Source: a virus
Length of the DNA stretch: 64,000 nt
Strand: one strand, 5' to 3'
Virus record (IMG/VR): IMGVR_UViG_3300045988_132725
The notes under the pieces were generated by a model. That model was not told where the DNA came from. It did no database searches and was given only the letters and a program-made list of their open reading frames with translations. Of the stretch, positions 289 to 18,245 are shown in pieces (position 1 is the stretch's first letter; the number at the start of each line of letters is the position of its first letter). The translations under genes and the position numbers were made by a program.

Positions 289-576
289 TTAGTTATTATG
301 TAAGTATTGATTAAAATAGTCTGCGATCTCGTTGAAATAATGTTTTGAGGAAACATATATTATACACTCCAAGATAAGGATCGTTGGCAGATCATCTTGG
401 TTCGGGAGCTTTTGTATTACTTGTCTGGTTATGAATCTGGCGATCATCTCTCCGGGGCGATCAAACCCTTGCGTGATACGAACAGCCTTGCAAACGCTCC
501 TGTATAATTCTTCAATTGAAAATCCTACCTTGCTTCCATCTTGCTTAATTACGATCTGATTTTGGTTCAATTGCAT
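289..576 (-). CDS. Stand-alone ATP-cone domain protein
   Basis: 95 aa. IVIKQDGSKVGFSIEEL ... EIADYFNQY follows the ATP-cone pattern (VIKRDG..E.F..eKI ... A.aY..Y). Its stop TAA (289-291) lies 1 nt before the nrdJ ATG. Confidence 0.55.
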   Translation of the reverse strand: MQLNQNQIVIKQDGSKVGFSIEELYRSVCKAVRITQGFDRPGEMIARFITRQVIQKLPNQDDLPTILILECIIYVSSKHYFNEIADYFNQYLHNN

Positions 577-1255: not shown

Positions 1256-2133
1256 TCTTGTAAATTATAGATTTTCCATTCTCTTTTGATTAGTTTTTTG
1301 ACATCGGTTTCAAATATCTTACAAGCGATCTCGTATAATTCTGGGATCATGTTCAGAACTCGATCGATGTAATCAATTTTGTTTTTGATCTCAGGTTTGA
1401 TGGCCTGTACTTTTTCACTATTGATTCTTCGATTAAGGCTCATATGGTATTTAAGCTCGAACTCTTTATAGAGCAATCGATATCTCTTTTGGAAATCAGT
1501 AGAGTTGTATCGAACAATTTGCGTGATCCTTTGGCGCTTTTCTGCCAATTCGATATCTTCAGTCAAACCCTCAATCACGTCTGATTTATGAGAGATAACT
1601 TCTTTCTGTTTTATATTCTCCGCTTGAAGAGCTTGTTTTTGTTTCTCTGACACAATAAGTGCTTCAAGCGCCTCTATGTAATTTTGAGGTAAGACAACAG
1701 CTGCTTTTTGCTTTTCTAACTCTAGCTCTTCCCATCGATCTATTATTTTTGCTCTTAGTTGGATATTATATCCACTAGCAAGAAGAAGACACGCTTTCTT
1801 ATTTAATTCATATTTAGGTCTTGTTTCTCCTTTTTTATCTATATATTCAGATATTTTGAAAATATATTCTGAAATCTTGTTTTGGGAAGTTGCAAAATTA
1901 TAAATAGCATCAATAGTTATATCGGATAGGTATTTATATTGTGTTCTATCAGATCTATGATAATCTTTCTTGATTTCATCAACGGGTACAGATCTGTACC
2001 CGTATGATTTGTTCAGATTATCAATTAGATTGCGTATATCTCGCATTACAATCTTATGTTCTTTGCCAGTTGTTTCCGCAATTTCAAGAGAACTCATCGT
2101 CTCTTTGATTGATAAATAATTCACATCATTCAT
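1249..2133 (-). CDS. Rha-family phage regulatory protein
   Basis: 294 aa. N-terminal SSLEIAETTGKEHKIVMRDIRNLI is the Rha motif. The C-terminal half is coiled-coil and antirepressor-like. Confidence 0.7.
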   Translation of the reverse strand: MNDVNYLSIKETMSSLEIAETTGKEHKIVMRDIRNLIDNLNKSYGYRSVPVDEIKKDYHRSDRTQYKYLSDITIDAIYNFATSQNKISEYIFKISEYIDKKGETRPKYELNKKACLLLASGYNIQLRAKIIDRWEELELEKQKAAVVLPQNYIEALEALIVSEKQKQALQAENIKQKEVISHKSDVIEGLTEDIELAEKRQRITQIVRYNSTDFQKRYRLLYKEFELKYHMSLNRRINSEKVQAIKPEIKNKIDYIDRVLNMIPELYEIACKIFETDVKKLIKREWKIYNLQEC

Positions 2134-2579
2134 TTGTTTTTTGATTTTTGAAAATAGTTAGTTGACACCGTGCATCTAATCTCATGCCGGTACAAACTTT
2201 ATAAAATATCTATGGTGGGGTCGAAAGATGGTAGGGTGCATCTTATCGTCAGTGTATAGGAGGGAATGAAACCGGGAATGCGTGAGTCAAATAGGATAAA
2301 ACGACAACGGAAGTATCTCCGTCAAAATTATTCGTTCCCGGTATTTTTTAAGCTCTAAGTCATAATCGTTCTCTTTTTTAGTTAACTTAATTTTGTAAAA
2401 AAAACATCCTTCCTCGAAAGAAAGTCTTGCAAAAGTATACGGAAGTTTTTTAATATACAAGCTTTATTTGAAAAATATTTCAATCATCAAAAAATCATTA
2501 TCTTAGATTTTAAAATGTCACTCCTCCTTCCATCCCTCTTCGGAGAGGGATTATAGGGAGAGGTTTTTATATTCTTTTA

Positions 2580-2594
2580 TTTACTTTACTTTAC
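2580..2594. repeat. (TTTAC)x3 tandem pentamer
   Basis: Read directly: tttac tttac tttac followed by tttg. Confidence 0.9.
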
Positions 2595-2608
2595 TTTGTG
2601 TACTTCGG

Positions 2609-2661
2609 ACGGAATTAATCGAGTTTCCTGAGGTAATAATCGAGTTATTGACGGAATTAAT
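2609..2661. repeat. Interleaved direct repeats ACGGAATTAAT (x2) and AATCGAGTT (x2), possible regulator binding array
   Basis: ACGGAATTAAT at 2609-2619 and 2651-2661. AATCGAGTT at 2617-2625 and 2638-2646. Confidence 0.6.
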
Positions 2662-2678
2662 TATTTGACCCTAGAAGA

Positions 2679-2712
2679 CGAAAAAAGGAGCACCTATAAA
2701 AAGATGCTCCTT
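2679..2712 (-). terminator. Intrinsic terminator after the 140-aa gene
   Basis: Stem AAGGAGCA / TGCTCCTT (2685-2692 / 2705-2712), with a U-run on the minus strand (plus-strand A-run 2679-2686). Confidence 0.6.
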
Positions 2713-2716
2713 GTTG

Positions 2717-3139
2717 TCATGAAAAAAATGTATCTGTCTTTTTTCTTTGTTCGATATAGCGTTTCATTTGGTTGCTCTGAAGACGTTCGTAATATTCTTT
2801 CTTTACTGGTGTCATTCGTTTTGGTTTGGAAGTACATAGCTTGTTCGTTTTGTACTCGTCCATATACCGATAGAATTTATTTTTTTGGAAGACTGGGTTA
2901 GGGGAAGCGAGCGTGATAGCTTCTATGATTTTCATCGTAGGTTCCGGAAAAACCCCTTTTGGGGTGGATGCCATGATCAGCTCATATTCGATCGGAGCCT
3001 CGTATTTCAAGAAGAAACCCAATTTAGTCTCATCAAAGTGCCTTTTTTTTCTGGTTCCCTTTGGCCTTCCTTGTTTTCCCGTGGGTTTCCCTTTCGTTGT
3101 TATTCTGATTCCGTTCTTCAGTAATGGTTTTGTTGCCAT
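2717..3139 (-). CDS. Hypothetical basic protein with AT-hook-like GRPKG motif
   Basis: 140 aa. N-terminus KGKPTGKQGRPKGTRKKR. No other recognisable domain. Confidence 0.5.
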   Translation of the reverse strand: MATKPLLKNGIRITTKGKPTGKQGRPKGTRKKRHFDETKLGFFLKYEAPIEYELIMASTPKGVFPEPTMKIIEAITLASPNPVFQKNKFYRYMDEYKTNKLCTSKPKRMTPVKKEYYERLQSNQMKRYIEQRKKTDTFFS

Positions 3140-3187
3140 GATTGCTTAAATGGTTCAAGTCGTTATTTATGTTGTATTTTCTCATGA

Positions 3188-5152
3188 TTATAAATATTCG
3201 TTAGCATTCGCTGGTTTTTGTTTGGTTACGTATGTACAGTGAAACCTAACCGCTCTTCCTTGTTTATCTGGCCAGTAATGTATTGGACAGGTAACAGTCC
3301 TATCATTAGCTTGACATTCCCACACAAGCCCGTAATTTATATCTTCCTTTCCAATTCCCGTGTTTATTGTACCGCATATATAAGTGGCTGGAGCACCAAT
3401 ACTGTTAGGGATCACAAACCAATTCCCCGCATTTCCTTTTGGCTCTATCATACCTCCAACCGATACTACACCTCCAACTTGTACGAATGTCAAACCATTA
3501 CCGGGTTGAGCCGTACAGATTCCAGTGGTTGATTTTAAAGCGTATTTTGTATCAAGCCCCTTCATTTCTTCTTGGACTATCTTACGAACCCCTTGATCCG
3601 CAGGAGAATCTCCTATCTTGGCTGCATCAATCAAGTTCCTTATCGCTGCCTTCTCCGTATCGGTTAATGTAGGTAAATCTTTAAGTTTCTCATTCTTCCT
3701 AAGATAAGCGGAATCGCATTCATTTTTGGAATACACGTTAAGGTTATTTCGTCCAACGGCCTTGTCTTGTACATCGCTAAGGTTATTGGCTGCTTTTAAG
3801 GCTCCACTTACAGCTTGGTTTATATCATCACCATTTGCGTAATCATCTGGGTTGATCCTATCGAGCTTGGCTTTGTACGTTGATGTGAAATTTTCGTCAG
3901 ACAATACCTTTCCGGATACAGCATTCACTTTCTTGTCCAATCCCTCATCGACATAGTTTTTAGAGGCATATTTAGATGAAAGTGTTTCTCCATTGTTTTG
4001 TAATTCTCCGACAACATTTACTTTAGTGCCTTGTAATGTGATATTTCCGCTTAAATGATGTTTGATTCTTAGATCATTCTGAGAGGTCTCAGAGAAACCT
4101 ACGGTTCCCATAATGACACCGTCCTTATCTTTCCACGCTATTGATTTTATATATGATGACTCTCCGTATTTATGGGCCGTATCACGGAAGACCAAGCCGA
4201 ACTCGTTTGTAGATTCCTCATTGATCGTGCAATACGAGTAGTTCATGTTCAACGCTCCGTCTGACCGGAACAATAATTTTCCCTTACCATTGTAGATATT
4301 GAGATGTCTTGGCTTGGTCGCTCCAGCATTATAACCGCTTCTATTGATATTTAAGGAACCATTTTCACTATTGTCAAAATAATTATAAATATCTGTCCCC
4401 GATATAAGTAATTCGCTAGTCCTTATCTCATTGGTCATTAATTCATTGATGGCCACGTTGCTTGGAGTAATCACCAGTTTCTCTATACCATCAGACATAA
4501 AACGTGTCACACCATCGAAACCGAACAACAGCTTACTTAACTCCTTGCCATTTTTCAAGAATGTGAATTGAGCGTTTCCTTCAGATGTTATTTTTTCTTC
4601 GATCTCAACTTGCTTATTTGGATTCTTGATCGAGAAGCTGGAATCATTGACAATATTCCCCTTTACATACAAGTCTTTCTCCATCACGATGTTTTTAGAG
4701 ATGGTTTGTTGTTCAAAGGAACTGTCGAGCGTTACGGCATACTTTCCAAAGAATTCATCCTTTAATCGAGGGATATAAGTACTTGTGATCTTGATATATT
4801 GTCGCCCATCTAATGGCATTTCACCAACCCCTTCGCATCCATACTCTATATATCCTAACTGTGTTGGGTTTTGAGCGTATGAAACATCATATGGCTCATT
4901 TTTTTCCACTATATAGAATGGAGTTGAAAGATCTATTGTCTTTCCTTCAAAGTGACGGATTTTTCCATTAATATATACATATCCTGCCGATATGCTTAAA
5001 TTCGTATTAGTCCCCGAAGTCTTGCAACCAGATACTATGAAATTCTTACATCCATCAAAAATAGATGCTAAGGACAGTGATAATTCTTGGAGACCGATAA
5101 AATCTTCTATATAGGTATACCGACCTCCTGTTTTTGCTACGTATTCTCTCAT
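3188..5152 (-). CDS. Tail fibre / receptor-binding protein
   Basis: 654 aa. It is the last gene of the baseplate-fibre block. It carries the fibre-shaft motif NNLSDVQDKAVGRNNLNVYSK, is Gly/Asn/Ser/Thr-rich, and its start overlaps the stop of the upstream gene. Confidence 0.65.
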   Translation of the reverse strand: MREYVAKTGGRYTYIEDFIGLQELSLSLASIFDGCKNFIVSGCKTSGTNTNLSISAGYVYINGKIRHFEGKTIDLSTPFYIVEKNEPYDVSYAQNPTQLGYIEYGCEGVGEMPLDGRQYIKITSTYIPRLKDEFFGKYAVTLDSSFEQQTISKNIVMEKDLYVKGNIVNDSSFSIKNPNKQVEIEEKITSEGNAQFTFLKNGKELSKLLFGFDGVTRFMSDGIEKLVITPSNVAINELMTNEIRTSELLISGTDIYNYFDNSENGSLNINRSGYNAGATKPRHLNIYNGKGKLLFRSDGALNMNYSYCTINEESTNEFGLVFRDTAHKYGESSYIKSIAWKDKDGVIMGTVGFSETSQNDLRIKHHLSGNITLQGTKVNVVGELQNNGETLSSKYASKNYVDEGLDKKVNAVSGKVLSDENFTSTYKAKLDRINPDDYANGDDINQAVSGALKAANNLSDVQDKAVGRNNLNVYSKNECDSAYLRKNEKLKDLPTLTDTEKAAIRNLIDAAKIGDSPADQGVRKIVQEEMKGLDTKYALKSTTGICTAQPGNGLTFVQVGGVVSVGGMIEPKGNAGNWFVIPNSIGAPATYICGTINTGIGKEDINYGLVWECQANDRTVTCPIHYWPDKQGRAVRFHCTYVTKQKPANANEYL

Positions 5153-5694
5153 TTTGGTTCTGATATTTTAATTTGAAATGTTTTGCCAGCGATCCTGTAC
5201 TCTTTGATCGTATTGGCTATCATGGGCACGAACTCCTCTTGTGGGATATTTATCTCTGGAACAGATATACTAAAGCTTGCCTTGTTGATGGTAAGATTCT
5301 CTTGCCGGTAATAAAACAGTTTGGGTTCCTCATCCGTTCCTATGACTGAATCCCAATCATCATCAATACTCCATACCGTACAAGGTGTAAGGTTTGGGTC
5401 TTTTTCTCTGTATATAGGAACGCCAATATCGATAGCGTCCTCGATTTCTATAGAATTATCCTTATCCACGAAATATTTTCTATATTTCTGATTCAAGTAC
5501 CATCTAAATAGGATCACTTGACTCGTCATGGATGCCTCGATCTTTTTCTCCCTTGCGAAATCAAGAAACTTGGAGTTGGTTTTTTGCAAGGGAGATACCA
5601 ACGACTGAAGGAATAGCACGTATTTTCTGTTCCTGAGAAAGTATGGAACAAGCATATTGACCAGCCTGTCAAAATTTATGGAATACCTGCTCAT
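5149..5694 (-). CDS. Baseplate-associated protein (hypothetical)
   Basis: 181 aa, translationally coupled (4-nt overlaps) between the J-like and fibre genes. Called by position only. Confidence 0.4.
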   Translation of the reverse strand: MSRYSINFDRLVNMLVPYFLRNRKYVLFLQSLVSPLQKTNSKFLDFAREKKIEASMTSQVILFRWYLNQKYRKYFVDKDNSIEIEDAIDIGVPIYREKDPNLTPCTVWSIDDDWDSVIGTDEEPKLFYYRQENLTINKASFSISVPEINIPQEEFVPMIANTIKEYRIAGKTFQIKISEPK

Positions 5695-6578
5695 AACGAA
5701 TCAACCTTTAATACGATAGATTCACGGAAGTTAGGAATATCCTTCTCTTCTCCCTCCTTGGATGATTCCCTAAGAAAACCAGAGCTTGCATATGTCATTC
5801 TTCCGACTCTCTTCTCCTCAGATTGGGTTCCATCGCTCTCATATGATACGATATACACCCCTTGTTGAGGTACAGCGTTTACGTCCATATATACGTCAGT
5901 TACATGCTCGACAGCCATCAAACAACTTACGATACTGGATACATAGATCGCCGAGTTGAATTTTGTCTCCATGATGAATTTGTTCAAGGCATCGTCAAGC
6001 GCACTTCTCATTGTCTCTTCCATTACGCTACCATCATAAAAGACAGTAAGTCGTGGAATGATTATATCGCCTTTCCTGCTAACCACCTCTATATAAGTCC
6101 CGGCGAACTTAATCTGATTGATATAAGCGGTAACTTGCGTCAATTGATCTTCAGTGAGAGGGGATAGTTTTCCGTTGGTTCCAGTGGCTACTTTCAAGAT
6201 GAGCTTCGTGTCAAGGCTCTGAGGATTGCTACTCTCTTGGTAAGATGCTTGCGTGATGATTCTTTTTGTCTCGTCTGTCTTTTCATACCCAAATCCCAAT
6301 CCGTCATCCTTAATTTTTAGTTTGTCACCATGTTGATATTTCAACGCTGCATTGACATAGTAGGAAGGAGTTCCATTGATCCTGTCCTTGATGATATCAT
6401 TGATATCAACAATAAACGTGTCCATGATTGTCTCGAAAGAATAGATAGCGGCCGAGACGAACCACGCTATCCCGTTAATGACGGATACTTTGGAATCGCT
6501 CTTGTATTCGGATAATTCAAGGCGCTTGTCCTTTTCCGCTACGATCTCTTTGTATATCTCATTTATGCTTCTTGCCAT
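5691..6578 (-). CDS. Baseplate J-like wedge protein
   Basis: 295 aa. Size, position and N-terminal pattern (SINEIYKEIVAEKDKRLEL..) resemble baseplate J / Mu gp47-type proteins. Confidence 0.45.
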   Translation of the reverse strand: MARSINEIYKEIVAEKDKRLELSEYKSDSKVSVINGIAWFVSAAIYSFETIMDTFIVDINDIIKDRINGTPSYYVNAALKYQHGDKLKIKDDGLGFGYEKTDETKRIITQASYQESSNPQSLDTKLILKVATGTNGKLSPLTEDQLTQVTAYINQIKFAGTYIEVVSRKGDIIIPRLTVFYDGSVMEETMRSALDDALNKFIMETKFNSAIYVSSIVSCLMAVEHVTDVYMDVNAVPQQGVYIVSYESDGTQSEEKRVGRMTYASSGFLRESSKEGEEKDIPNFRESIVLKVDSL

Positions 6579-6580
6579 TG

Positions 6581-7507
6581 TTAAATCGTATATGTTTTAT
6601 TGTTTAGGATTATTTTCCAAGGACCACTTGATTCCTTATGCTCGTTAACCAATACCCAGATAGCCTCCATCCCGCTTTTTGGATGGAGTAGGACATCCGG
6701 CTTCTTGTACTCTCCGGATGGCAATGTTGAGCCGACAAGATTTATGGTGCAATTCCTCCTTATCCCATAATTTTCGACAAGCCCGATAAGATACTTATCC
6801 ATGACACCAGACCCGATATTGCAATAACCTAAATTTATGGTGTGAGCATTTTTAAAACCGATGAGAGGGGAAAGGTCGTTAAGCCTGCATTTTGTGAATC
6901 CTACCTCTATTAATCCATTTGTGTCTACCATCTGCATGAAATCAATTCCTGACAGTTTCGTGGCCCCGTTGATCTTTATGGTTTCCATATGCAGGGGAGC
7001 GAAAGATAATATCTTGTTAGGATACAAGTCTGATAAGTCCAAATCATATAGTTTGAAATCACCGAACAATCTTATTCTCCTGTCTACGGTTGTATCGCTC
7101 GTAAGTATGTGACTGTAATATTTATAAGAGCTGGAAAGCGTTATTCTCTCGATCTCAGCATTGTCTCCCCAATCAACATATATATCACCCTCTCCAGAAG
7201 CGCTGATTCCTATCATCTTCTTGTCTGAGGAACAATATATTTGCATCCTTATATTGGTATGCTCTTTGAAATATATGTCACCAATCCTATTAGAGGGAAC
7301 GATATTGTTGCTTTTGTAATATTGAAGTACCGTTTGATCCTCGTAATAATATGGCGTATATTGTAACCTGTCGCCGCTTTTAATCTCAGAATCGATCGAT
7401 AGGGTAGGGTTGTTCACCATTAAATCCAGCAAGCCCTCTATCGATCCGTATAGAGATAACGCTACATCAAAAAGGTTCTGTCCTGTTTGTACCGTGTACT
7501 CAGCCAT
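6581..7507 (-). CDS. LysM-like N-terminal domain baseplate/tail protein
   Basis: 308 aa. YTVQTGQNLFDVALSLYGSIEGLLDLMVNNP ... GDRLQY matches the LysM / tail-protein-X pattern. Confidence 0.5.
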   Translation of the reverse strand: MAEYTVQTGQNLFDVALSLYGSIEGLLDLMVNNPTLSIDSEIKSGDRLQYTPYYYEDQTVLQYYKSNNIVPSNRIGDIYFKEHTNIRMQIYCSSDKKMIGISASGEGDIYVDWGDNAEIERITLSSSYKYYSHILTSDTTVDRRIRLFGDFKLYDLDLSDLYPNKILSFAPLHMETIKINGATKLSGIDFMQMVDTNGLIEVGFTKCRLNDLSPLIGFKNAHTINLGYCNIGSGVMDKYLIGLVENYGIRRNCTINLVGSTLPSGEYKKPDVLLHPKSGMEAIWVLVNEHKESSGPWKIILNNKTYTI

Positions 7508-7508
7508 G

Positions 7509-8162
7509 TTATATCTCCTCTCTCGCTTTAATGGCTATCTGTCCAGTTTCGGAGTCTATGTTAACTTCCTCGACAAACATCTTATCTCGGTTAAACTCCT
7601 CCTTGATCTTGATTCCTAAGCTGGAATCGTTAATATTACCGTTAAGGTATTCTTGGAGCGCTATCCCTGTAGTAGGATATTGATAGAGGTTCCCGGCGTA
7701 GCTTTTCAGTAGATAGGACTCGTTTTGCTCAAGCGACTCGCATAAGGATAGATCGTAAGAATACATGTCCGACACATACACTTGATTATCTATTAGATTG
7801 AAACAATAGCAGAATCGATCCGATATGACAGGGAGCGTGGATGCGTATACCTCTTTGTCATTTAAGTCCTTAACCGTATAATACTCGCTGTTGTCGATAG
7901 GGTTAAGGATCGGGTAAGCGTTATTGGACCCATCTATAGCCCAAAATGACATCTTTATCTTTTTATATTTCAAGCAAGCCGGGATATATACGCCAACACC
8001 TTCCTCCAAGTCATTATTCTGGAAGTTACTCTTGAATTGACACTTTCCATACAAATAATAATCATCCTCTTTCTCCCAAGAAAAATCAACCATATACCGA
8101 GGAGTCCTTTCCGATAGGGATAGGTCTCCGGTATCAAAATCTACCGCAATATCTGTTCTCAT
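7509..8162 (-). CDS. Hypothetical structural protein
   Basis: 217-aa ORF in the structural operon, preceded by the structural-gene box. Confidence 0.5.
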   Translation of the reverse strand: MRTDIAVDFDTGDLSLSERTPRYMVDFSWEKEDDYYLYGKCQFKSNFQNNDLEEGVGVYIPACLKYKKIKMSFWAIDGSNNAYPILNPIDNSEYYTVKDLNDKEVYASTLPVISDRFCYCFNLIDNQVYVSDMYSYDLSLCESLEQNESYLLKSYAGNLYQYPTTGIALQEYLNGNINDSSLGIKIKEEFNRDKMFVEEVNIDSETGQIAIKAREEI

Positions 8163-8175
8163 ATTCTTTATCGTT

Positions 8176-8191
8176 GTTTATTAAGATTAGG
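8176..8191 (-). promoter_or_regulatory. Structural-gene box (minus sense CCTAATCTTAATAAAC)
   Basis: One of seven related boxes. It lies about 20 nt upstream of the ATG at 8162 and immediately after a terminator. Confidence 0.4.
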
Positions 8192-8213
8192 TTATATATT
8201 GTTGTTTTGTTGA

Positions 8214-8252
8214 TACAAAAAAGGGGAGAAAAGCTTGTTCGCTAATCTCCCC
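8214..8252 (-). terminator. Intrinsic terminator
   Basis: Stem GGGGAGA / TCTCCCC (8223-8229 / 8246-8252), followed on the minus strand by a U-run. Confidence 0.65.
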
Positions 8253-8474
8253 ATGCCATAGTGGTCTTGGTTTTTTGATTAATCTACCCTTGCCTCCCCT
8301 GTTAAAGATGAATAAGTTAGTGGTGTTCGTTCACGCATATTACAGAACTCGTTTCGGTAGAACTGAGTATGTGAGACAACACTATCGTTCATTGCCTCGT
8401 AGATAGAAGTTGTAATTTACCTTAATAGTGAATGGGAAAAGAAGGTTGGATTTACACCAGTCGGTCTTTTAAAG

Positions 8475-8858
8475 TTAAGGTTGTGGTTTTTGGAGTGGTG
8501 CTTTAGGGATCGCCTTGCTGTTATCCACCAATTGGGCGCATTCATTGAACACACGTTCGACAAATTCCCATACGTCATCCGTGAACTCTTTCTCTGAGGC
8601 TCCCTCACAAGCCTCGTTAAGGTATTTGGCTAGGTCCTTGGTGATCTCCAACTCGATCGGGTTCTCTTGGTCTATCTGAGGATTCCAAGAGATAGATCCC
8701 GTTTCCTCGTCTTGCTTGATCTGGTACTTATCATTATCTTCCTCCGATAACTGTACTTGTTTCACCAGTTCTTTTTTCAAGTTATACGTCTTATAGTCCA
8801 CCGGTTTTTGTGGTAAAAGGTTCAAGAGATAGAACCTGTCTTTAACGAATAGTTTCAT
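8475..8858 (-). CDS. Hypothetical acidic protein
   Basis: 127-aa ORF with protein-like composition. The overlapping 63-aa ORF at 8417-8608 is judged spurious. Confidence 0.5.
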   Translation of the reverse strand: MKLFVKDRFYLLNLLPQKPVDYKTYNLKKELVKQVQLSEEDNDKYQIKQDEETGSISWNPQIDQENPIELEITKDLAKYLNEACEGASEKEFTDDVWEFVERVFNECAQLVDNSKAIPKAPLQKPQP

Positions 8859-9831
8859 TTCGGTATTAATTTATTGATTATCAGTATTTTGTTTTCTTTT
8901 CTCCCTTACGTTAAAACGCAGCATCCCCTTTATACCCTAGAGAAGAATGTCTCATTCAACCTTTAAGCACCTTAAGTACCAAAAAGACGTACTATCCCCC
9001 GGCATGGCTCGCATACCCCCAATAGTACCTTGAATGAATCCTCAAACTTCTCTCGACCCCATACAACACTTCCGTACCCCAAGCCTTGAACGTAATTAAT
9101 GTTTTCTTCCTGATTACTAACGACTCCTTCTACCAACCGACTCTACTGCTTCTTCCTCGCCATATCAAAGCTGGTAATTATCATAATCGCTTTCTGTCAG
9201 TTATAATCTACATCCGCTCCTTTGTCGCTCATTTACCTCATGGTGCTTAGATTGCGCAGAACGCTTTATTCTTCTCTAGGTTCCTGTTGTCAGGGTAGAC
9301 ATTGCAGGATTTTTTACTTCCCATGTGCAAATGGTTATATGGATGCCACTTTCCTTTGTTCCCACCTTACGGCGTGGACTGAGGGATATAGATCGCCTAT
9401 CTATTATTCGTAGATTCAGCGATCGCACAGGACTCAGTGTTACGGGTAGCGTCTCATTACTCATTCTACCCGCCTCCTATCGGTTTGTTTACCGCCAGTT
9501 TTCCGACCATTTTTAGGTTTGCCACGATGTCAATTCCGAGGCTCTCACCTCTCAACCCCTCCGCTGAAGGATTATTGTTTATATAAGAATAGGTTTTTTT
9601 TTGGAAAAGGTTTGAAAAAGAGAATGATTTTTTCAGATAAATGTTTAATGTGTTGATTATTAGTGATTTTTTGCTGCATATTAAGCATGGAATACCAAAT
9701 TTGGTAGATAAGCTTTGGAATATAAAAATATTCAAATAGGACTAAGAAGACTTTTTACTTCCTCGTTCTAAGATGAAATCCTCTCAAAAAAGCAATATGT
9801 CTAATTTGCTAGAAAATGTCCTTATGATTAT
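8859..9831 (-). other. ORF-free tract A (candidate long ncRNA or decayed gene)
   Basis: 973 nt with only short ORFs of non-protein-like composition. The plus strand is C/T-rich. A structural-gene box sits at 9577-9593 with no ATG after it. Several local hairpins are present. Confidence 0.4.
9577..9593 (-). promoter_or_regulatory. Structural-gene box (minus sense CCTATTCTTATATAAAC)
   Basis: Shares the 16-mer TTTATATAAGAATAGG with 53066-53081. Confidence 0.4.
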
Positions 9832-12800
9832 TTATAAATCGGTATCAATAAATCCTGTATTTCCTAATGAGTAAGTTTGTCCGTTAAAATCACGGATGTA
9901 AATTCCTCCGGCGGTAATAATTGTTTTTCTTATTATTTTTTGACTTGGGTTTGAATTCTCATATGCGATACCTTTGAGAACTATATATGGGGAATATTTT
10001 TCAAATATGTAACTTAAATCATTGTTACTTATATTGTTAATATTCATATAGTCTCTTGGCATTTTTATTTCCCATGTTGATTCAAATGTGTATTTACTGC
10101 TGTCATATATTGCTTCATTTTTGTAATATCCAGAAACCATTCCTGAATCAAGCCTATTATAATGGTTAGGGTCAAATTGTGATTCGATCTTTTGTCCTTC
10201 GTACATCGTCAATCCATTGCTCTGCGATAACTCCCATTTATTCGTAGATTTTATGGTTCCAGCACTATTGATAGATAAAATCCCATTATTTATGTTATTG
10301 GAGGATATTGCCCATCCACCGATCTTACCGCTTGTCGCTGTTACCTCTCCAGAGAAAGATCCACTGGCAGCTTCCAGCTTGCCTTTAAAATGTGCGTTAC
10401 CATCCATATCTATATAGAATTGCGGTGATCTTATGGCTGCTTGACTCCCATTACTATATAGCGTTATTCCAGAAGTAGAGAAACCTTCAGATGTTCTCTC
10501 GGTACCTGTATAGATACTGTTTCCGGTTATATTCCATTTACCGATCGTTCCTGTTACGGCGTTTATCTTTGATGTATCGACTGTTGCGTTCACCGTTACA
10601 TCTTTTCCGAATGTCACCTTACCTTCCTTATCCCATTTTATGTTTCCTTTCGCTAAGCATCCTGAGCCATCGTTACCAAGTCTCCAAAAGGTGTTTGTGT
10701 CTCCTGTAGAAGGATAAGTCTCTCCATCGACTATGGTCATTTTAGCGTGTGCGATAGTTCCATTTGAATCGATATAAATAACGGAATCAACCACTGAGCC
10801 TGTTACGCATTCATGTTTAAGACCTTTGTTTGTAATTTTCCAGCCTCCAATTAAACCACTGGTCGCTTCAATATTACCTTTAAAATAAGCGTTCCCATTA
10901 GTATCTATCCGAAAGTTCTTTGCTCTTATTGCTGCTAAGTTGGCTCCATCGCTATAGAATGTTATTCCAGACGTAGAAAATCCGTCAGATGTTTGTTTAG
11001 TTCCGGTGTAAAGATAATTCTCTTCTATCTTCCAGTTCGCCAACGTTCCTTTCTTTGTCGTGAGTTCAAGAGTGTTTATTATATCGGCTGTTATAAACTT
11101 GGCTTGCAAATCTTCTGTCTGTATACTGTCCGCTTTTAACGCTGCCGTTATGACTTGTTTAGCTTCAAGCGTTCCTGTATAGATGCCGGTTGAGGTTATC
11201 TTGGTCAATCGAGACTGGAGGTCTGCTTGTGACAATCTCCATTCCATAACGGTTTCTGAGTTTGTCAATATCATCGAGTTGTTTGTTATATAAAAAGTAC
11301 CCGCTGTCCCGAAACCAATGTAGATATACGAGGAGTCCATGCCTGTGAAGTTCTCTATCTCTACATTCGTCCATGTGTTTTTGGTAAGTGGTTTGGTGAC
11401 AATATTGTTATTGCTTGCCCCAAACTTGATGTACATGTTTGTATTTACATTTGAAAATATCCTGAACGCTAAACTAGCGGGATCGCAAATCTTATTGGTT
11501 GAGAATCTGACGCAATTTTGTGATACTGTTGAGTCTGTAGCTGAAGTAGAAGTGATACTTAACCATGTATTGACATATAAAGACAGGGTTATCCCATAAG
11601 TTGTTATTCCGGGAAACGTGTAAATGTTGGTTGTTTCGTCTTTTGTATACTCTTTGAAATCCGTATGTTTTATCTGGTTATCCATGATATCCTTGTATCC
11701 ATTATAGTCCATGTTTCCCCAACTTAGCACCACGTCCTCCCCGAACTCAATCTTTCCGGTGGATGAGTTGTATTTGATATATTGTTTGTCTGCGCCTAAT
11801 TGAGCGTTTCCCACGGAGTCAAGAAACCAAGTGTTCTTGCCTTTATTGAATCCATAGATACCATTGATTGTTCGTGTCACGTATCCTCCGGAAGGATTGG
11901 CTACCTTTAATGGAAGATTTCCTAACGCCAACCCTGTCAATGTTCCATCTGAGTTCTTTGTTCCAGCGAATATCTTAGGGGTTATAACTTGATTTCCATT
12001 GATCTCCGTCTTGTTGGTATTCCAATCATTGACCCAATCTAATAAGTTTGCATCTTTTCCGGGTTGGCCTATCTCTCCATCTTTTCCGAAATGACCTATT
12101 ACATGCGGGACGGAGGTCTTGCTGGTATTGTCCGTATATTTGATTACCTCATAGCCCCATAGATATGGTTTATCTTTGCTTATAACTTGTGAGTTGACGT
12201 TCGTGCTCCATCCAGAGGTACTGGTAGTGACTCCGGATGACGCTGTTGTTGCCAAATAATAGTTGGTTATGGAAGATATACCGTTACCAGTTGCTCCGGT
12301 ATCCCCATATACGCCTATGATTTGTACGCTCTCTTTTTTTGTGCCGTCCGAAAAGTTAATCCTCTCCTTGTTCCATAGGTATTTGTTCGTTGGTGTCATC
12401 TCTGGTATATTCCCATCCCATCCGGAAGGTGGGGTAGTTTTACTGGATGATACGGCGTACAGTTCTTCTATGGATAGAATCCCGATCCCGTCTTCTCCCC
12501 GTATGCCGTCAACCCCATTGTATACCTTATATACGCTAATCAGGTCGTAGTATTCTTTATTGTTGACGATAGCCGTATATTTGATAGATAGGTTGTTCTT
12601 CTGGCTCCAGATACTAGATGTATCGCTCAACAATAGAGAGGTAGAGGCGCTTCCTGCGCTAATCCAAAATCCATTGGGAGATAGGTATTCCCATTTCCTG
12701 CTCGTAGGAACGATATTTATCTCCTCGGCCTCTAAGGCTGTTATGTTGCTATCTACCGTACCATCCTTATCATAATAGAATACGTTTCTACCAGTGATTC

Positions 12801-14499
12801 TCACGCCCTTGCTTGAAAGATTATTTTGGGCCTCTTGGGTAAGATCTTCCCACCTAATCGTTACATCTTGTAATGTTATGGTGTCTTTTGTCCATGCGAA
12901 ACGACCATCTGCAAACTGTCCTGTTCCATCGCTTTTTATTATGAATGAATCGTTTCTGGAGCGTATAGAACCATCATCACAAAATCTCAGTAAGGGGTTC
13001 TGGATCGTACCACCTATACCTCCCTTGCATGCCCAAAAGCCATAGGATTCGCTGTCTTCAGATAATGTGTCATCTGTTGGTTGGTACTGGGTGGCATATT
13101 CTCCAAACTCAAGCTGAGGTGAGCAAACTATCAATTGCTCCGTAGTCTCGAATCTCATGGTAAGTTCGTTTGCAGTGGAATATACAGGGAATGTGGTCGT
13201 ATATCTACGCCATCCAGCCTCTATTTCGAAAGAGTCTATCAAGTTCGTGTTTTGATAGATCTTTACGGTTAAATCTTTTGTTCCCTTGATCCATATAGAG
13301 AAAGTGACAATCTTGTCTTTGTTCGCTGATGCCCAGCCCGCTTCCCTGCAAACCAACGTGTGCATATTTACGGTGGTAAACTTGTATGCGTTACCAATGC
13401 GTGCCGGTAGATTCTCATTGGTTAGTAGTGTTGCTGTGCCTTGAAAATCGCATTCAAGACTGTTTCGCATCAAGTTCTTCTGTATTCTTCCTGCATAGAA
13501 AGTACTGGAGAATCCATTCTCATCGCCAGCGGTTAACGTACCGGCTATACCAACGTTCTGGGTTGCGTAGAGGTTTTGGGAGTAGACACCATAACCCTTG
13601 AGCGTACCAAACACGGGATCTACTATTTGCCCGATTTTTCCGATGGTAGCCTTGTTTGCGTTCGTGAAATTGGCTATGTCGGATAACTTGATGATATTTA
13701 GCTCGGCGATATATACGGTCGTATAGGCTGGAACACCATCAAGAATGATTGAGAAACTTCTTGTGTCTCTTTGCGCTTGATCAATGTTCACCAGATGAAA
13801 CCTGTATTCCCATTCAGTCGATGCGCTAATGGTTCCCTCAGCCTCGTATTTGCTATCGTCCGTATATCCGAACTTGAATGGGAGAGATGCTATTGTCCAA
13901 CTTGCCTTGATCTTGTATGATATAACAACAACATTCTGGGTGTTCAATGTATCCTCGAAGGTTGTCTTTATCCTTGCGTTTCCAGATGATGCCTTGCTGA
14001 TGGAGAATACACGATAAGCGCCATCAAGGTATTTCTCATAAGAGCATGAGCTTCCGGTATTAAGGATTGCGTTATATTTATCCTTGGATGCTGTATTAGG
14101 GGTGTTTCCCGGCAAGAAAGGGATACACAACGATTTCTCGGTTCCAAGTTTGTCAAGAACACTCATATAAGGCGCTTCAGAATCACTTGCCGTTAAGTAT
14201 AAGGCTCCGCTTCTGTCTGCGTTGAAAAGATTGGTCATCCTTGCGAAATCCAACACTTGATCGCTGGAGGGAATATCTCCGTCTAGCAATGCTCCCACGA
14301 AATAAGGCGAATCCTCCAGTACCCCGTTCTCGTTGGCGATCTTATCTATTCCTGTATCGAGAACAGCCATCAAGCTGTATATAGTATTCTTTCCGTCAAA
14401 ATATTGTCTTCTGACGATATCCCCGGCTTGTAATCCTTGTATTTTCTTTGATTTAGGATCGATAGAGATCTTGTACTTCGTATAATTGATTAATGACAT
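9832..14499 (-). CDS. Giant tail fibre / host-specificity protein
   Basis: 1555 aa with an internally repeated C-terminal module (TSxGFSTSGIT.YS..AAIR...F.ID..GNA.FKG..EA.SG..GGW.I). Follows the baseplate genes. Confidence 0.7.
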   Translation of the reverse strand: MSLINYTKYKISIDPKSKKIQGLQAGDIVRRQYFDGKNTIYSLMAVLDTGIDKIANENGVLEDSPYFVGALLDGDIPSSDQVLDFARMTNLFNADRSGALYLTASDSEAPYMSVLDKLGTEKSLCIPFLPGNTPNTASKDKYNAILNTGSSCSYEKYLDGAYRVFSISKASSGNARIKTTFEDTLNTQNVVVISYKIKASWTIASLPFKFGYTDDSKYEAEGTISASTEWEYRFHLVNIDQAQRDTRSFSIILDGVPAYTTVYIAELNIIKLSDIANFTNANKATIGKIGQIVDPVFGTLKGYGVYSQNLYATQNVGIAGTLTAGDENGFSSTFYAGRIQKNLMRNSLECDFQGTATLLTNENLPARIGNAYKFTTVNMHTLVCREAGWASANKDKIVTFSIWIKGTKDLTVKIYQNTNLIDSFEIEAGWRRYTTTFPVYSTANELTMRFETTEQLIVCSPQLEFGEYATQYQPTDDTLSEDSESYGFWACKGGIGGTIQNPLLRFCDDGSIRSRNDSFIIKSDGTGQFADGRFAWTKDTITLQDVTIRWEDLTQEAQNNLSSKGVRITGRNVFYYDKDGTVDSNITALEAEEINIVPTSRKWEYLSPNGFWISAGSASTSLLLSDTSSIWSQKNNLSIKYTAIVNNKEYYDLISVYKVYNGVDGIRGEDGIGILSIEELYAVSSSKTTPPSGWDGNIPEMTPTNKYLWNKERINFSDGTKKESVQIIGVYGDTGATGNGISSITNYYLATTASSGVTTSTSGWSTNVNSQVISKDKPYLWGYEVIKYTDNTSKTSVPHVIGHFGKDGEIGQPGKDANLLDWVNDWNTNKTEINGNQVITPKIFAGTKNSDGTLTGLALGNLPLKVANPSGGYVTRTINGIYGFNKGKNTWFLDSVGNAQLGADKQYIKYNSSTGKIEFGEDVVLSWGNMDYNGYKDIMDNQIKHTDFKEYTKDETTNIYTFPGITTYGITLSLYVNTWLSITSTSATDSTVSQNCVRFSTNKICDPASLAFRIFSNVNTNMYIKFGASNNNIVTKPLTKNTWTNVEIENFTGMDSSYIYIGFGTAGTFYITNNSMILTNSETVMEWRLSQADLQSRLTKITSTGIYTGTLEAKQVITAALKADSIQTEDLQAKFITADIINTLELTTKKGTLANWKIEENYLYTGTKQTSDGFSTSGITFYSDGANLAAIRAKNFRIDTNGNAYFKGNIEATSGLIGGWKITNKGLKHECVTGSVVDSVIYIDSNGTIAHAKMTIVDGETYPSTGDTNTFWRLGNDGSGCLAKGNIKWDKEGKVTFGKDVTVNATVDTSKINAVTGTIGKWNITGNSIYTGTERTSEGFSTSGITLYSNGSQAAIRSPQFYIDMDGNAHFKGKLEAASGSFSGEVTATSGKIGGWAISSNNINNGILSINSAGTIKSTNKWELSQSNGLTMYEGQKIESQFDPNHYNRLDSGMVSGYYKNEAIYDSSKYTFESTWEIKMPRDYMNINNISNNDLSYIFEKYSPYIVLKGIAYENSNPSQKIIRKTIITAGGIYIRDFNGQTYSLGNTGFIDTDL

Positions 14500-14503
14500 A
14501 AGT

Positions 14504-16189
14504 TTATGGTATTGTTGTTACTTTATCTGCGCTACATGAGTCACTTACCCAGAGAGAGCCGTTGACTACGCTTATTTTTTGGATCTCAAGCTCGTAAACT
14601 CTCATTTTCTTACGGATCACGGCCTCATCTACGGTTAACTCTACATTTCCTGTATCTAGCTTTTTCCTGATCGCCCATCCCTCTCCAGCGAAACCGGTAG
14701 AGAATCTTTCGGATGATAAATTGTCCATAAAATAGGAATCTCCGTAATGTCTAATCCCAATTCCGGTTGTTCCATCAACATCTACGACATTGACTAGGTG
14801 AGTGTTGTCGGTAAAGAATAGCGTATTATCGGAAAGTCTGGTTGTCGATTCAGTTATACCGATAAAGTCTTTTGCCTCTATAGGGTTGTTGAACGTGAAA
14901 AAATCAGCGGTTGAGCCTATAAATACGCTCTCGCTGTTTCGGGATTGATCTTGGTAAATAGATGTTGATTGCCCGATATTGATAGTAGTTCTATGCGTGG
15001 CATTGTATTCTCCTCTCATGTACTTGGCTTCCAATCCGATTCCGTATGTGTCAGCTGATATGAATGGGCCAGTATCATCCCCGAATCGTAATTTTTCGTG
15101 GATAACGACAGAACTTTCAGCGGTACTGAGAAGCTTATTACCGAATCCATACCCAGCCTCAAACGTGTTCATGAAAGAGGCGTTGCCAAACTTATCGATT
15201 AGATTGTGGTCTCCAGCATAGGTAGTAAGGGTATTCCATAGCCGTATATTGGTGGTACTATCATCTCCACTTCCTAGTATCAATGAGCCGCCTATAGATG
15301 ATAGCTGGATATTATTTTCTGAAGGACATCCAAGAACATCTTTTTTGTCGATCTTGATCTTATATGTCTTACCTAGCTCAATATCTCCGTTAACCTCCAT
15401 GTTTTCATCATCATTGATATATAGGATGACATTGTTATTGGATCCAAGCTCAACTTTTTGTAAGGAGGTTAGAAGTCCTTTTAGCGTACTGTTGCCTTCC
15501 ACAAGCAAACTGCCTTTCACGTTCGAGTTCTTCATCGTCCAATCGATATCTTCCTTATTGGAATTACCGGCGTGATAGACGGTATTGCTGGAATAGGTAA
15601 AGGAATCGTTGGATACACTGAGGCTATTGGCGTTCAGTGTTCCGGTTATTTGTATGCTCGATTCCTTGAAATCAACAATATTTCCTCCATCTATCTCTAG
15701 TATTTCTTTTTTGTCACTGTCTCTGGAAAAATGATTGAATAATATCTTATTGTCGATAAATAGGTTATGGCTATCTATTTTAAGTTTTTCTTCAATCGAT
15801 ATGTACTGATCTTTTATGATAGCTCCTTCCTTTTCTTGCTTGGTTTGGAAGAATATTTTACCATCTTCTCCAGTTTGAAACCCGAATAACGTACCTAGCC
15901 TTCCAGACATGTTATCTCCTGTCTTTTTGACGAAAGTACCTAGTTGAGGCTCGGAAGGCTCGCTGGTTCCTATGCAGTTCGCTATGGGAGAGGCGAGGTT
16001 ATAGGCGGCATTCTTTATCTTGTTATTGATCACTATTTGATCCTGTTCTGGTAAACCTTCGAGAGCATCGCCTTGACTACTTTTGATACTAGCATAAAAA
16101 CTTTCATACAAGTTTTTACAAACCTCTGATCCTGCCAAATCTGGCATATCAATAAGCCCTTTGTTAGGGTCTATTATCTCTTCTGCCAT
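14504..16189 (-). CDS. Tail fibre / baseplate-distal structural protein
   Basis: 561 aa, Asn/Gly/Ser/Thr-rich, sitting between the spike and the giant fibre. Confidence 0.5.
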   Translation of the reverse strand: MAEEIIDPNKGLIDMPDLAGSEVCKNLYESFYASIKSSQGDALEGLPEQDQIVINNKIKNAAYNLASPIANCIGTSEPSEPQLGTFVKKTGDNMSGRLGTLFGFQTGEDGKIFFQTKQEKEGAIIKDQYISIEEKLKIDSHNLFIDNKILFNHFSRDSDKKEILEIDGGNIVDFKESSIQITGTLNANSLSVSNDSFTYSSNTVYHAGNSNKEDIDWTMKNSNVKGSLLVEGNSTLKGLLTSLQKVELGSNNNVILYINDDENMEVNGDIELGKTYKIKIDKKDVLGCPSENNIQLSSIGGSLILGSGDDSTTNIRLWNTLTTYAGDHNLIDKFGNASFMNTFEAGYGFGNKLLSTAESSVVIHEKLRFGDDTGPFISADTYGIGLEAKYMRGEYNATHRTTINIGQSTSIYQDQSRNSESVFIGSTADFFTFNNPIEAKDFIGITESTTRLSDNTLFFTDNTHLVNVVDVDGTTGIGIRHYGDSYFMDNLSSERFSTGFAGEGWAIRKKLDTGNVELTVDEAVIRKKMRVYELEIQKISVVNGSLWVSDSCSADKVTTIP

Positions 16190-16992
16190 TATTTTACTTT
16201 TACGGTTTGTGATAGAAATGAATTACACTCGGAGAGGAACGATGTGAAATTAGCGAGATTGATGATTGGCATCGTCCCTAGCATGGTAGGGGTGGTTATC
16301 TTTGAGCATTCGGTTATGAATTTCATCATGAGGGTCACAAGCTGCGTACCCAATACCGCTGGCTCTGTCGCTCCCTCTCCGATATTTATTGTTTTCCCCT
16401 CCAGTGTTACCCCAGATGGATCGATCTTTTCATACGAGCCTTCTACGGTATCCTTTATTTGGGCCTTATCGATCTCTCTTTTGGACGATCCTATCTCTGA
16501 TGTTATCTTGTCGGGAGCGATGGTTTGAGTGGCTGAGTCGGTCTTGTTCGAGACCATAGAGGTTATTGATGAGTTGGTATATGTGGTTTTGCTCTTGTTC
16601 CCGTCATCTTCCAATTCGTTATAGTCAACCTCATCGTTAGGAGTTTCGCTGGTGACTCCTATATTTACTTCTTTGGTTGAGATGATATTGTAGGTATCGA
16701 TATGGGAGAAGGATAAGATAGAGGCGTTACCGGTTCCTACCGCCCATAATACTGTCACGTCAGACTTGATGGTAGGAATAGTCATCTGGCCCTTGCTTAA
16801 TCCGGGAATGGCATTCAATGGAATTTCTGGTATCCTTACCGTCCCATCCATGGAAATGAAATCTATGGTTCCTATGACTCCATTATCTCCCGGCGTATAT
16901 TTGGCTACAAAGCCGTGCAATATCATCAAGTTATTCTCCGGGGCCTGTACGATCCGTCTCAGCGCTTCTGATAGTTTGTTCTGGTCTGCCAT
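16189..16992 (-). CDS. Baseplate spike-like protein (Mu gp45 / P2 gpV position)
   Basis: 267 aa, start and stop coupled with both neighbours. Called mainly by position. Confidence 0.4.
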   Translation of the reverse strand: MADQNKLSEALRRIVQAPENNLMILHGFVAKYTPGDNGVIGTIDFISMDGTVRIPEIPLNAIPGLSKGQMTIPTIKSDVTVLWAVGTGNASILSFSHIDTYNIISTKEVNIGVTSETPNDEVDYNELEDDGNKSKTTYTNSSITSMVSNKTDSATQTIAPDKITSEIGSSKREIDKAQIKDTVEGSYEKIDPSGVTLEGKTINIGEGATEPAVLGTQLVTLMMKFITECSKITTPTMLGTMPIINLANFTSFLSECNSFLSQTVKVK

Positions 16993-18245
16993 TATTTATC
17001 GCTTAATTTATATGGTATCTTTAATTTTTGCCTATACCCCTTTACCCCGAAAGTCGTTATTACCTCGCTTACCACGTAAGTTCCGTTTCGCTCGGGATTG
17101 AGGTTATCCGTCAGCCGTATCTTGCATCCAGCTTGTAATCCAAAATCACCGAAGATCGTAAGGTCTCCATCGATTCCGGTCTGGGATATCTCTCCGAATT
17201 TCGCTTCAGCATTCTTGATAAGAGTGTCACGGTTGACGTTATATTCATGAAAAGTACGAATATTATAAGCAGAAAGATCGATTTTGGTGTTCTTGCCGCC
17301 GTATTGGTTCGTGAGATTGTTGTTTTTGTCATATTCTGATAATAAAGTGTTCTTTAACTGGTTCTTACTTATCTTTGTCTCATTTACTACTTGAAATTTA
17401 GAGAGATCTTTAGGATCTCTTCTTATTGTAGCCTTGAACATTGAGTTGTTGGGGTACAAGGCTATCGCTTCCAAGGCGATGAGTGCTGGATCTAATTTGT
17501 GGATGGATAAATTATCCTCTGCCACGTTCTCATCAAACTCTATATCATAAGGAGTATCCGGCATGTCTTTCAGTAACGATTCAGAGGTATTGACAGAAAA
17601 GAATGTTCTGCCTATAGCTAGATGAGGAATACCGTTATAATTTCTCATATAACACATGATACCCCATTTCTTGAACCTGTTCAATATATCCGCTGCCGTA
17701 CAGCTTTGTGGATAGATAATCTGGCCTATCTCCATGTTCATCTCTTTCGTGCTGGGGTGAAGCTCTATTCCAGTGCCTTTCAGTATCGTTGGTACAAATT
17801 CATTTATCTTGGTACCTTTTGCGCTGGTTTTTATCGGATCTAGCGCTGTCTGCTTTAATATATATCCCATATCCTCACATTCAAGGGTGAAAGGATTTCC
17901 TGAAACGATAGAGGTTATGTATCCATCGAACATCGTTTTGAGATTCTCGTCTATTCCGTAGCAAAGTTTTATATTGATACGCTTGCCTCTTTTGAACAAG
18001 CTATCCTTGTCGCCCATAAGCTTGACCTCTCTGGTTCCGAACTCGTCTTTCAAAGAGGACTTGACCGTGATCTGTCTCGTGAACTCTACGGTGGCCGAAT
18101 TTATGAGTGTCTGATAGGAGTCTTTGATCTGGAGATTGACAACCTCGTTGACAGTGACCTTATTTAAGATGTTCAGTTTATCGTTAGGATCTTCGTCCCC
18201 TATTGTGATGAGACAATTCAGTATGCTTAAGCCATGTATTTCCAT
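16992..18245 (-). CDS. Baseplate hub protein (P2 gpD / Mu gp44-like)
   Basis: ORF trimmed to the internal ATG at 18243-18245 (MEIHGLSIL...), which overlaps the upstream stop as TAATG. 417 aa. Called by position after the tape-measure-proximal gene. Confidence 0.45.
   Translation of the reverse strand: MEIHGLSILNCLITIGDEDPNDKLNILNKVTVNEVVNLQIKDSYQTLINSATVEFTRQITVKSSLKDEFGTREVKLMGDKDSLFKRGKRINIKLCYGIDENLKTMFDGYITSIVSGNPFTLECEDMGYILKQTALDPIKTSAKGTKINEFVPTILKGTGIELHPSTKEMNMEIGQIIYPQSCTAADILNRFKKWGIMCYMRNYNGIPHLAIGRTFFSVNTSESLLKDMPDTPYDIEFDENVAEDNLSIHKLDPALIALEAIALYPNNSMFKATIRRDPKDLSKFQVVNETKISKNQLKNTLLSEYDKNNNLTNQYGGKNTKIDLSAYNIRTFHEYNVNRDTLIKNAEAKFGEISQTGIDGDLTIFGDFGLQAGCKIRLTDNLNPERNGTYVVSEVITTFGVKGYRQKLKIPYKLSDK

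Follow-up and report, generated by a model that had tools for sequence, protein, structure and literature searches.

Why does a phage genome keep almost a kilobase of apparently gene-free DNA within its array of tail genes? The question is raised by positions 8859-9831 of a 64,000-nucleotide stretch of viral DNA (IMG/VR record IMGVR_UViG_3300045988_132725; the whole stretch is hereafter called the window), a tract that runs from the stop codon of a 1555-aa tail-fibre gene to the ATG of a 127-aa open reading frame (ORF). An earlier model-made reading of the sequence (hereafter the original prediction) offered two explanations: either the tract encodes a large, structured RNA, or it is what remains of a gene that decayed recently. 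We conclude that the tract almost certainly holds a genuine conserved structured RNA, encoded on the minus strand. The fuller statement, that this is a non-coding RNA of about 680 nt that is made late and acts in trans, has in our estimate a probability of about 0.55.

The absence of a gene from this 0.97-kb tract was borne out. The longest ORFs measure 54-89 aa and lie on both strands, and none exceeds 89 aa. No single stop-codon reassignment opens a frame; all six frames contain at least two each of TAA, TAG and TGA, and a gene with recoded stops was rejected on this count. The minus-strand array had been described as otherwise back-to-back, which is not the case (further gaps measure 370, 312, 287, 139 and 117 nt), but the tract is indeed the largest gap in it. 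The minus sense is also purine-rich, as had been noted: the core of the element (8900-9576) is 61% purine, with 29% G and 16% C, and its GC content is 45% compared to about 40% for the adjacent genes.

A conserved fold on the minus strand

Close relatives of the tract were found through the 127-aa protein, in IMG/VR and public metagenomes, and by DNA motif. Diverged homologues were found through homologues of the 127-aa protein and of a neighbouring 217-aa protein, and were confirmed by BLAST, nhmmer and a covariance model. Among close relatives the tract is 97-99% identical from about position 9621 down into the 127-aa ORF, compared to just 78% or so at the end of the tail-fibre gene, and the conserved block begins CTTTTTYAAACCTTTTCC...CCTATTCTTATATAAAC. 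The original prediction had proposed conservation in relatives as a check, and the element proved to be present in five lineages with pairwise nucleotide identities of 51-100%: lineage A (the window and about 10 contigs), B (L027 and L057), C (L026, L094 and L099-L103), D (L089, L090 and L092) and F (L096 and L097). The 217-aa neighbour in the other lineages is 44-54% identical to that of the window. In all homologues the element lies immediately 5' of an ORF of 112-127 aa, with one copy per genome region and the same locus each time. The RNA is about 680 nt long in the window and 620-760 nt in the other lineages, and lineages A, B and D have about 55 extra nt after the first hairpin.

The carriers, about 25 contigs from one phage clade, are metagenomic Bacteroides-type phages of roughly 100 kb, at least some of them labelled as human gut metagenome. 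The window phage itself encodes a portal of the Mu type, a ClpP-like protease and a tape-measure protein. In GenBank it is closest to Bacteroides phage BS-TP1 and to MT835494, a contig from human faeces. Neither nhmmer nor the covariance model found the RNA in these two, and a blastn search of the tract in distant mode against 50,697 GenBank phages gave no match. Motif scans of IMG/VR found, apart from chance matches, no lineage other than A, and a contig scan of the genomes of GTDB species representatives returned only chance matches and no host prophage with the element.

The evidence for a fold comes from an alignment of 15 sequences analysed with RNAalifold, which predicted 94 base pairs, 44 of them with compensatory changes. 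Standard pairs filled 96.8% of the cells of this model, compared to 36-41% when the 3' partners were slid by 1-3 columns; sliding also reduced the compensatory pairs to 5-13 and the covariation score from 0.44 to 0.04-0.10, and the observed values were reached by none of 500 column shuffles. A fuller model of 123 pairs in 24 helices behaved in the same way, with 95.2% of cells paired (35-40% when slid) and 51 compensatory pairs (6-13 when slid). The covariation in homologous tracts that the original prediction had suggested looking for is thus present. Several pairs are G-U in all 15 sequences (e.g., columns 110:141 and 155:195). These would be C-A on the other strand, and therefore the RNA lies on the minus (gene) strand. 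Folding energies were in agreement, with a z-score of -4.6 for the minus strand of the core, and of -2.6 (minus) and -0.8 (plus) for the whole tract (20 shuffles each). Conservation in five lineages, compensatory changes and controls that fail to reproduce them give strong support to the large structured RNA that had been offered as one of the two explanations.

The other explanation, a recently decayed gene, or a gene with a reassigned stop codon, would account for the small ORF that some relatives have at the tract's place and for a purine content like that of the adjoining mRNAs. However, the several stops of each type in all six frames are joined by the lack of any ORF common to the lineages, and the 51-100% identity has been kept without a reading frame. 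Substitutions are compensatory across helices rather than codon-patterned. A pseudogene of the small ORF just mentioned was also rejected, as tblastn with 95- and 109-aa proteins of this kind against the tracts of seven lineages returned nothing. Finally, ARAGORN found no tRNA or tmRNA, suppressor tRNAs included, in the 64-kb window. We therefore reject gene decay, which appears very improbable.

Limits of the element and the box at its head

The original prediction treated the whole tract as one element. This holds for most of it, but about 210 nt next to the tail-fibre gene (approximately 9622-9831) are plain spacer that cannot be aligned even among the closest relatives. Homology starts instead at a bipartite promoter-like box (Table 1). 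The box had been placed at the head of the tract; it is 218 nt inside the tract but does head the conserved element. It had further been said to have no gene behind it, whereas the 127-aa ORF does follow, 718 nt downstream. A 14-bp palindrome that had been listed with the hairpins of the tract (TACCAAATTTGGTA, 9693-9706) falls in the unconserved spacer and is not part of the element; the spacer is unique to this genome and is not conserved even in relatives with 98% identical RNA.

The box has the consensus CAAAC(C/T), 17-19 nt, TA(T/A)TCT plus TnnATAAAC, and is not a chance pattern (the long form has 2 matches compared to 0.02 expected). Its association with structural genes was upheld, but not its reported occurrence 20-30 nt upstream of five ATGs: clear copies lie 13-21 nt 5' of three gene ATGs (22853, 8162 and 29540). 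In L027, as in the window, a copy lies 13 nt before the ATG of the gene that follows the small ORF and terminator, and a further copy in the window (53101-53065, minus strand) stands at the head of a second ORF-free tract. Bacteroides promoters have the consensus TTTG/TAnnTTTG. The box does not fit this consensus, and for this reason we read it as a putative phage-specific late promoter. A transcription start at the box, near 9577, had also been proposed, and would agree with homology that begins at the box and with the 5' hairpin that follows.

The loci differ 5' of the box, where a tail-fibre, protease, MACPF/LytTR or radical SAM gene is found, yet homology still begins at the box. Its immediate 5' neighbour in L089 is an intrinsic terminator hairpin. 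The position directly 5' of the box forms a hot spot, occupied by unrelated cargo genes (L089:1-2449, L090:1-2466 and L097:321-2280), which encode an SDH/ClpP-type protease, a MACPF protein with a LytTR regulator, and a radical SAM protein with a DUF697 protein; some are on the opposite strand.

Architecture of the RNA

The RNA begins AAUAAUCC or CCUUCG directly 3' of the box, and its 3' limit is uncertain, falling between 8885 and 8914. The domains are listed in Table 1. The 5' terminal hairpin (P1) has a counterpart at the same place in every lineage, its sequence differing from one lineage to the next, and the other variable regions likewise retain hairpins at equivalent positions.

Table 1. 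Features of the RNA locus in the window (positions are those of the whole stretch).
Feature	Position	Strand	Remarks
1555-aa tail-fibre gene	9832-14499	minus	5' neighbour of the tract
AT-rich spacer, 27% GC	9615-9831		3' of the tail-fibre stop codon; outside the RNA
Bipartite promoter-like box, CAAACC-N17-TATTCT-TATATAAAC	9577-9614	minus	homology of all lineages starts here
Structured non-coding RNA core	8900-9576	minus	nhmmer and covariance-model matches, covariation, z-score -4.6
5' terminal hairpin P1, UAAUCCUUC-AGCG-GAGGGGUUG	9553-9574	minus	directly after the box
5' domain	9378-9499	minus	covariation; covariance model R1
Central domain	9055-9347	minus	closed by a 13-bp long-range helix
3' domain	8937-9055	minus	closed by GAGAGA (9054-9049) / UCUCU (8943-8937)
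A-rich linker, 61% A	8859-8899	minus	from the RNA to the ORF start; varies among lineages except for a CUAAUAAUCAA-like motif
127-aa ORF	8475-8858	minus	follows the RNA; 112-127 aa across lineages
Intrinsic terminator, GGGGAGA...UCUCCCC + U6	8217-8252	minus	end of the RNA and ORF unit
Box copy, CAACAA-N17-TAATCT-TAATAAAC	8176-8213	minus	13 nt 5' of the ATG of the 217-aa gene

The 5' domain contains a small hairpin (CGG-UAAACAAA-CCG), a helix (GCGGGUAG/CUACCCGU) with a conserved 16-nt loop (AAUGAGUAAUGAGACG), and a helix ACUGAG/CUCAGU that surrounds the helices GAUCGC/GCGAUC and AUCUA/UAGAU. A covariance model (R1) scored 135 bits at this domain and matched RNA-bearing loci only. The long-range helix of the central domain pairs GGCAUCCAUAUAAC (9347-9334) with GUUGUAUGGGGUC (9067-9055). 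Within it are an inner helix (CAUUUGC.CAUGG / CCAUG..GUAAAUG, 9333-9321 / 9243-9230), a hairpin at 9309-9282 and an arm of CUGA/UCAG plus GCGAU/GUCGU (9200-9110), the tip of which is a variable hairpin present in every lineage. The two long helices of the central domain have 5-7 compensatory pairs each. The 3' domain encloses two variable hairpins and the hairpin GAAUG-AGA-CAUUC, and is followed by a conserved GGGWAUAAAGGGG; helix 21, in this domain, has 3 compensatory pairs with 96% of its cells paired.

Comparison with the hairpins read from the window sequence by the original prediction gave a mixed outcome. The hairpin GGGTAG/CTACCC was confirmed by compensatory changes in 7 of its 8 pairs. 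For CCACGCC-GUAA-GGUGGG the stem was retained (CCAC/GTGG is CUUC/GAAG in lineage C) but the GUAA cap, of the GNRA type, is not conserved. ATAGAT-N5-ATCTAT had to be abandoned, as two other covarying helices use its bases and it cannot form in lineage C (CAGAUAGGUUGCCAAUAU).

Known RNA families, introns and retroelements

An Rfam search had been suggested as a means of finding a known family, and it matched none. With Rfam 15, the whole window at gathering score gave no match at the tract, and neither did positions 8300-10300 or five loci of lineages C, D and F at E values up to 10 (lineage B was not scanned). Literature searches likewise turned up no description of the RNA. The narrowness of the family probably explains both its absence from Rfam and the lack of a description.

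We also considered whether the element could be a mobile or self-splicing ribozyme, namely a group I or group II intron that has no ORF, or the relic of such an intron, placed behind the tail-fibre gene. Its size would suit an ORF-less intron, and it is an insertion relative to the relatives without the RNA. Class C group II introns favour sites after terminator hairpins, which is the type of site that the RNA occupies in L089. However, no Rfam intron model matched at E values up to 10 at six representative loci from lineages A, C, D and F. The 5' end of the element is a box common to ordinary genes, and no domain V-like hairpin was recognized by reading. A group I intron was rejected on the lack of an RF00028 match, the stop codon of the upstream gene at 9832, and a downstream ORF with its own ATG and full-length homologues. 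A group II intron was rejected on the lack of an Rfam intron-model match and an RNA start (AAUAAUCC or CCUUCG) that differs from GUGYG. The genes on either side are complete, stop and start codons included, which leaves no exons to join, and the single copy per genome region is always at the same locus. An intron is thus highly unlikely.

A similar judgement applies to the template or guide RNA of a retroelement, such as the template-repeat RNA of a diversity-generating retroelement (DGR), a retron RNA or a UG27-type array. In BS-TP1 (L110, PQ571274.1), genes for an Avd-like four-helix-bundle protein, a reverse transcriptase and a DUF4376 protein lie beside the tail module, just 5' of the tail genes (12-2658), in a three-gene cassette that looks like a DGR. 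Moreover, UG27 reverse-transcriptase systems with arrays of non-coding RNA are common in Bacteroidota phages (bioRxiv 10.64898/2026.09.22.753630). However, an adenine-tolerant scan of both strands found no stretch of the tract of at least 50 nt that recurs in the 64-kb window, and a repeat search of positions 1-20000 found no repeat families. The matches in the adenine-tolerant scan were self matches only, with no template or variable repeat, and a DGR template RNA was rejected accordingly. Pfam revealed no reverse transcriptase domain among the 38 window ORFs scanned, nor was there one among the called genes beside the RNA in related loci. The RNA is a single non-repetitive unit, and a template or guide RNA of a retroelement appears most unlikely.

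The downstream ORF and the role of the RNA

The 127-aa ORF belongs to a family of Bacteroidota phage tail-module proteins with 510 protein clusters, mostly of about 107 aa, from Bacteroides- and Alistipes-associated contigs. An AlphaFold2 model of the protein is helical (pLDDT 87.7), and searches of Pfam, NCBIfam, PHROGs, PDB sequences and, with Foldseek, PDB and BFVD returned only uncharacterised viral proteins. Two 107-aa homologues (P0089/WP_289090839.1 and P0099/WP_300104030.1) carry the NCBI name "RNA-binding protein", for which no NCBIfam, Pfam, PDB or fold match gave support; if true, the name would suggest an RNA-protein pair. An intrinsic terminator follows the small ORF in four of the five lineages, with equivalents of that in the window in L027, L099, L101 and L096, and the scan found none in L089, L090, L094 and L026. 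In L027 (9905-10944), the start codon of the small ORF reads ATA (L057 keeps ATG) and an extra 193-aa ORF lies between the small ORF and the terminator. The promoter-like box, 5' hairpin, RNA, small ORF and terminator together make a cleanly bounded unit.

Our preferred reading, to which the probability given at the outset applies, is that the box would serve as a late promoter, and that the RNA would be transcribed late in infection together with the tail genes, forming the 5' portion of a short transcript that extends through the ORF to the terminator. The RNA would then work in trans through its fold as a stable particle, whether as a protein scaffold, a self-assembling RNA or a catalyst, and would not be mainly a switch for the small ORF.

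The chief alternative is that the RNA is a giant cis-acting 5' leader. In response to a bound factor or to a signal late in infection, it would govern transcriptional read-through into the 112-127-aa ORF, or the translation or stability of that ORF; genes that lie past the terminator might be controlled as well. The arrangement of the locus accommodates this view. The order box, RNA, linker, ORF is found in every locus and puts the RNA in a 5' untranslated position between the promoter-like box and an ORF that is always adjacent to it. Lineage C, and no other, has a weak hairpin and a run of U4-5 at the 3' end of the RNA that could act as an attenuator. However, we favour an RNA that acts in trans because the molecule is far larger than known leaders and has many more helices: bacterial cis-regulators known to us reach roughly 300 nt, and an RNA of 620-760 nt with about 24 helices is several times the size of any bacterial leader or riboswitch of which we are aware. 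A role in trans is also favoured because the ORF family occurs in hundreds of phages without such a leader, because the next gene (217 aa) has its own box, and because ROOL and GOLLD, the sole comparable objects, are phage-borne stand-alone RNAs. Rfam matched no known aptamer in the window or in lineages C, D and F, and a conserved helix that would hide the start site was not apparent. In all lineages, the linker ahead of the ATG is predicted to be moderately open, and less paired than the RNA body (unpaired probability 0.51-0.74 compared to 0.37-0.43), although such predicted accessibility of the start site did not discriminate a trans-acting RNA from a cis-acting leader. Overall, a cis-acting leader seems to us the less likely account, but a serious one.

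Several observations weigh against the trans-acting RNA that we prefer. The covariation rests on five lineages, and was controlled by sliding and shuffling rather than by R-scape-type significance. The start of transcription, the 3' end and the stability of the RNA are all deductions from sequence. The stretch from the RNA to the ORF lacks an intrinsic terminator in most lineages, and therefore the simplest transcript carries both, which fits a cis-acting leader too; the RNA was, in addition, never found apart from the ORF. The family is narrow, being confined to those 25 or so contigs of a single phage clade, and this restricts the statistical power. No partner protein, ligand or target of the RNA was identified, and there are no tRNA genes nearby, unlike the situation for ROOL and GOLLD.

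Related phages that lack the RNA provide a natural contrast. In all of those examined, from four contexts (L111, L115-117, L118-121 and L122-125), an ORF of 95-109 aa sits in the RNA's slot (e.g., L115:3666-3995), and the gene order is tail fibre, 95-109-aa ORF, 106-108-aa ORF, and 225-233-aa and 310-aa proteins, with no gap. Two of these slot ORFs were scanned and both match phrog_29137. Covariance model R1 found no RNA in any of the four contexts, and no ORF of 95-109 aa was present in the slot of the RNA-bearing loci checked. It therefore looks as though the slot holds either the RNA or the ORF, but not both. It is tempting to suppose that the RNA took over the job of the phrog_29137 protein, in tail or tail-fibre morphogenesis, as a virion component or as a late RNA cage, but we consider this improbable. 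Sister phages with a small protein gene in place of the RNA, together with the proximity of these phages to BS-TP1, an isolated Bacteroides phage that is itself without the RNA, offer a tractable setting in which the role of a large phage RNA is directly testable.

A second ORF-free tract and other features of the window

The further box copy noted above heads a 1.1-kb tract on the minus strand (51940-53064) in which the longest ORF is 78 aa. A 5' hairpin (CCUUC-AAAUCC-GAAGG) comes after the box. Three IMG/VR contigs (L112-L114) share the tract at 96-98.6% identity; in two of them the identity of the adjacent 186-aa protein is only 89%. The tract had no Rfam match, and its folding z-score was weak (-1.7). 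With no collinear similarity and no covariance-model match to the first RNA, it was rejected as a paralogue. It may be a second long non-coding RNA, and long non-coding RNAs driven by late promoters may, given this second box-headed tract, recur in this phage group.

Immediately 5' of this box-headed tract is a gene for a 189-aa protein with AID/APOBEC-like cytidine deaminase domains (53118-53687, minus strand; several Pfam APOBEC families, E ~1e-6). Elsewhere in the window, a "GT4-conflict" glycosyltransferase (PF20706, E = 2e-66) is encoded within the structural-gene array (23395-24876, minus strand). Overlapping ORFs of 198 and 222 aa in different frames (47817-49008, plus strand) both match Phage_integrase and may represent a split or frameshifted tyrosine recombinase.

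Comparison with known systems

To our knowledge, very few bacterial or phage RNAs longer than 500 nt have elaborate conserved folds (OLE, GOLLD, ROOL, HEARO/omega and a handful more), and all of these have proved to act as ribozymes or guides or to form unusual self-assembling particles. Smaller elements offer some points of likeness. Leaders, antitermination RNAs (HK022 put and EAR) and riboswitches resemble the RNA described here in that it lies directly 3' of a promoter-like element and heads a terminator-containing unit. However, such elements measure 70-300 nt and have 2-6 helices, in contrast to about 24 helices in about 680 nt, and here a box of its own precedes the gene that follows the terminator. 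The pRNA of phi29 is likewise a phage-encoded structured RNA made alongside structural genes, and is an example of an RNA that takes an active part in the assembly of virions. It is about 174 nt long, acts in DNA packaging and is encoded near a genome end, and no relation between the two in sequence or structure is expected. A morphogenesis role for the RNA described here would be pure speculation.

The closest counterparts are ROOL (RF03087) and GOLLD (RF01998), phage or prophage RNAs of 600-800 nt and of unknown function (PMC12286853). Like them, the RNA described here is phage-borne, is longer than 500 nt, has a conserved multi-helix structure and contains no ORF. ROOL is also close to it in length (about 600-660 nt), is built of numerous helices with long-range closures and conserved loops, and has no known associated protein (PMC12286853). 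However, ROOL occurs in Bacillota or rumen organisms whereas our RNA comes from Bacteroidota gut phages, where it is located in the tail-gene array directly 5' of a small ORF and not in a tRNA island, and it had no match to the ROOL covariance model in the lineages scanned. GOLLD is likewise a large phage-borne RNA with a variable 5' part and a better conserved remainder. Its expression rises at lysis (PMC12286853), and late expression is presumed here too, on the strength of the late-gene box. The RNA is smaller than most GOLLD RNAs, did not match the GOLLD covariance model and has no tRNA inside or beside it. A further trait of ROOL and GOLLD is self-assembly into homo-oligomeric RNA cages. 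As our RNA has neither a covariance-model match to ROOL or GOLLD nor their association with tRNAs, it is a new class within a known kind, that of the large ornate phage RNAs of unknown function.

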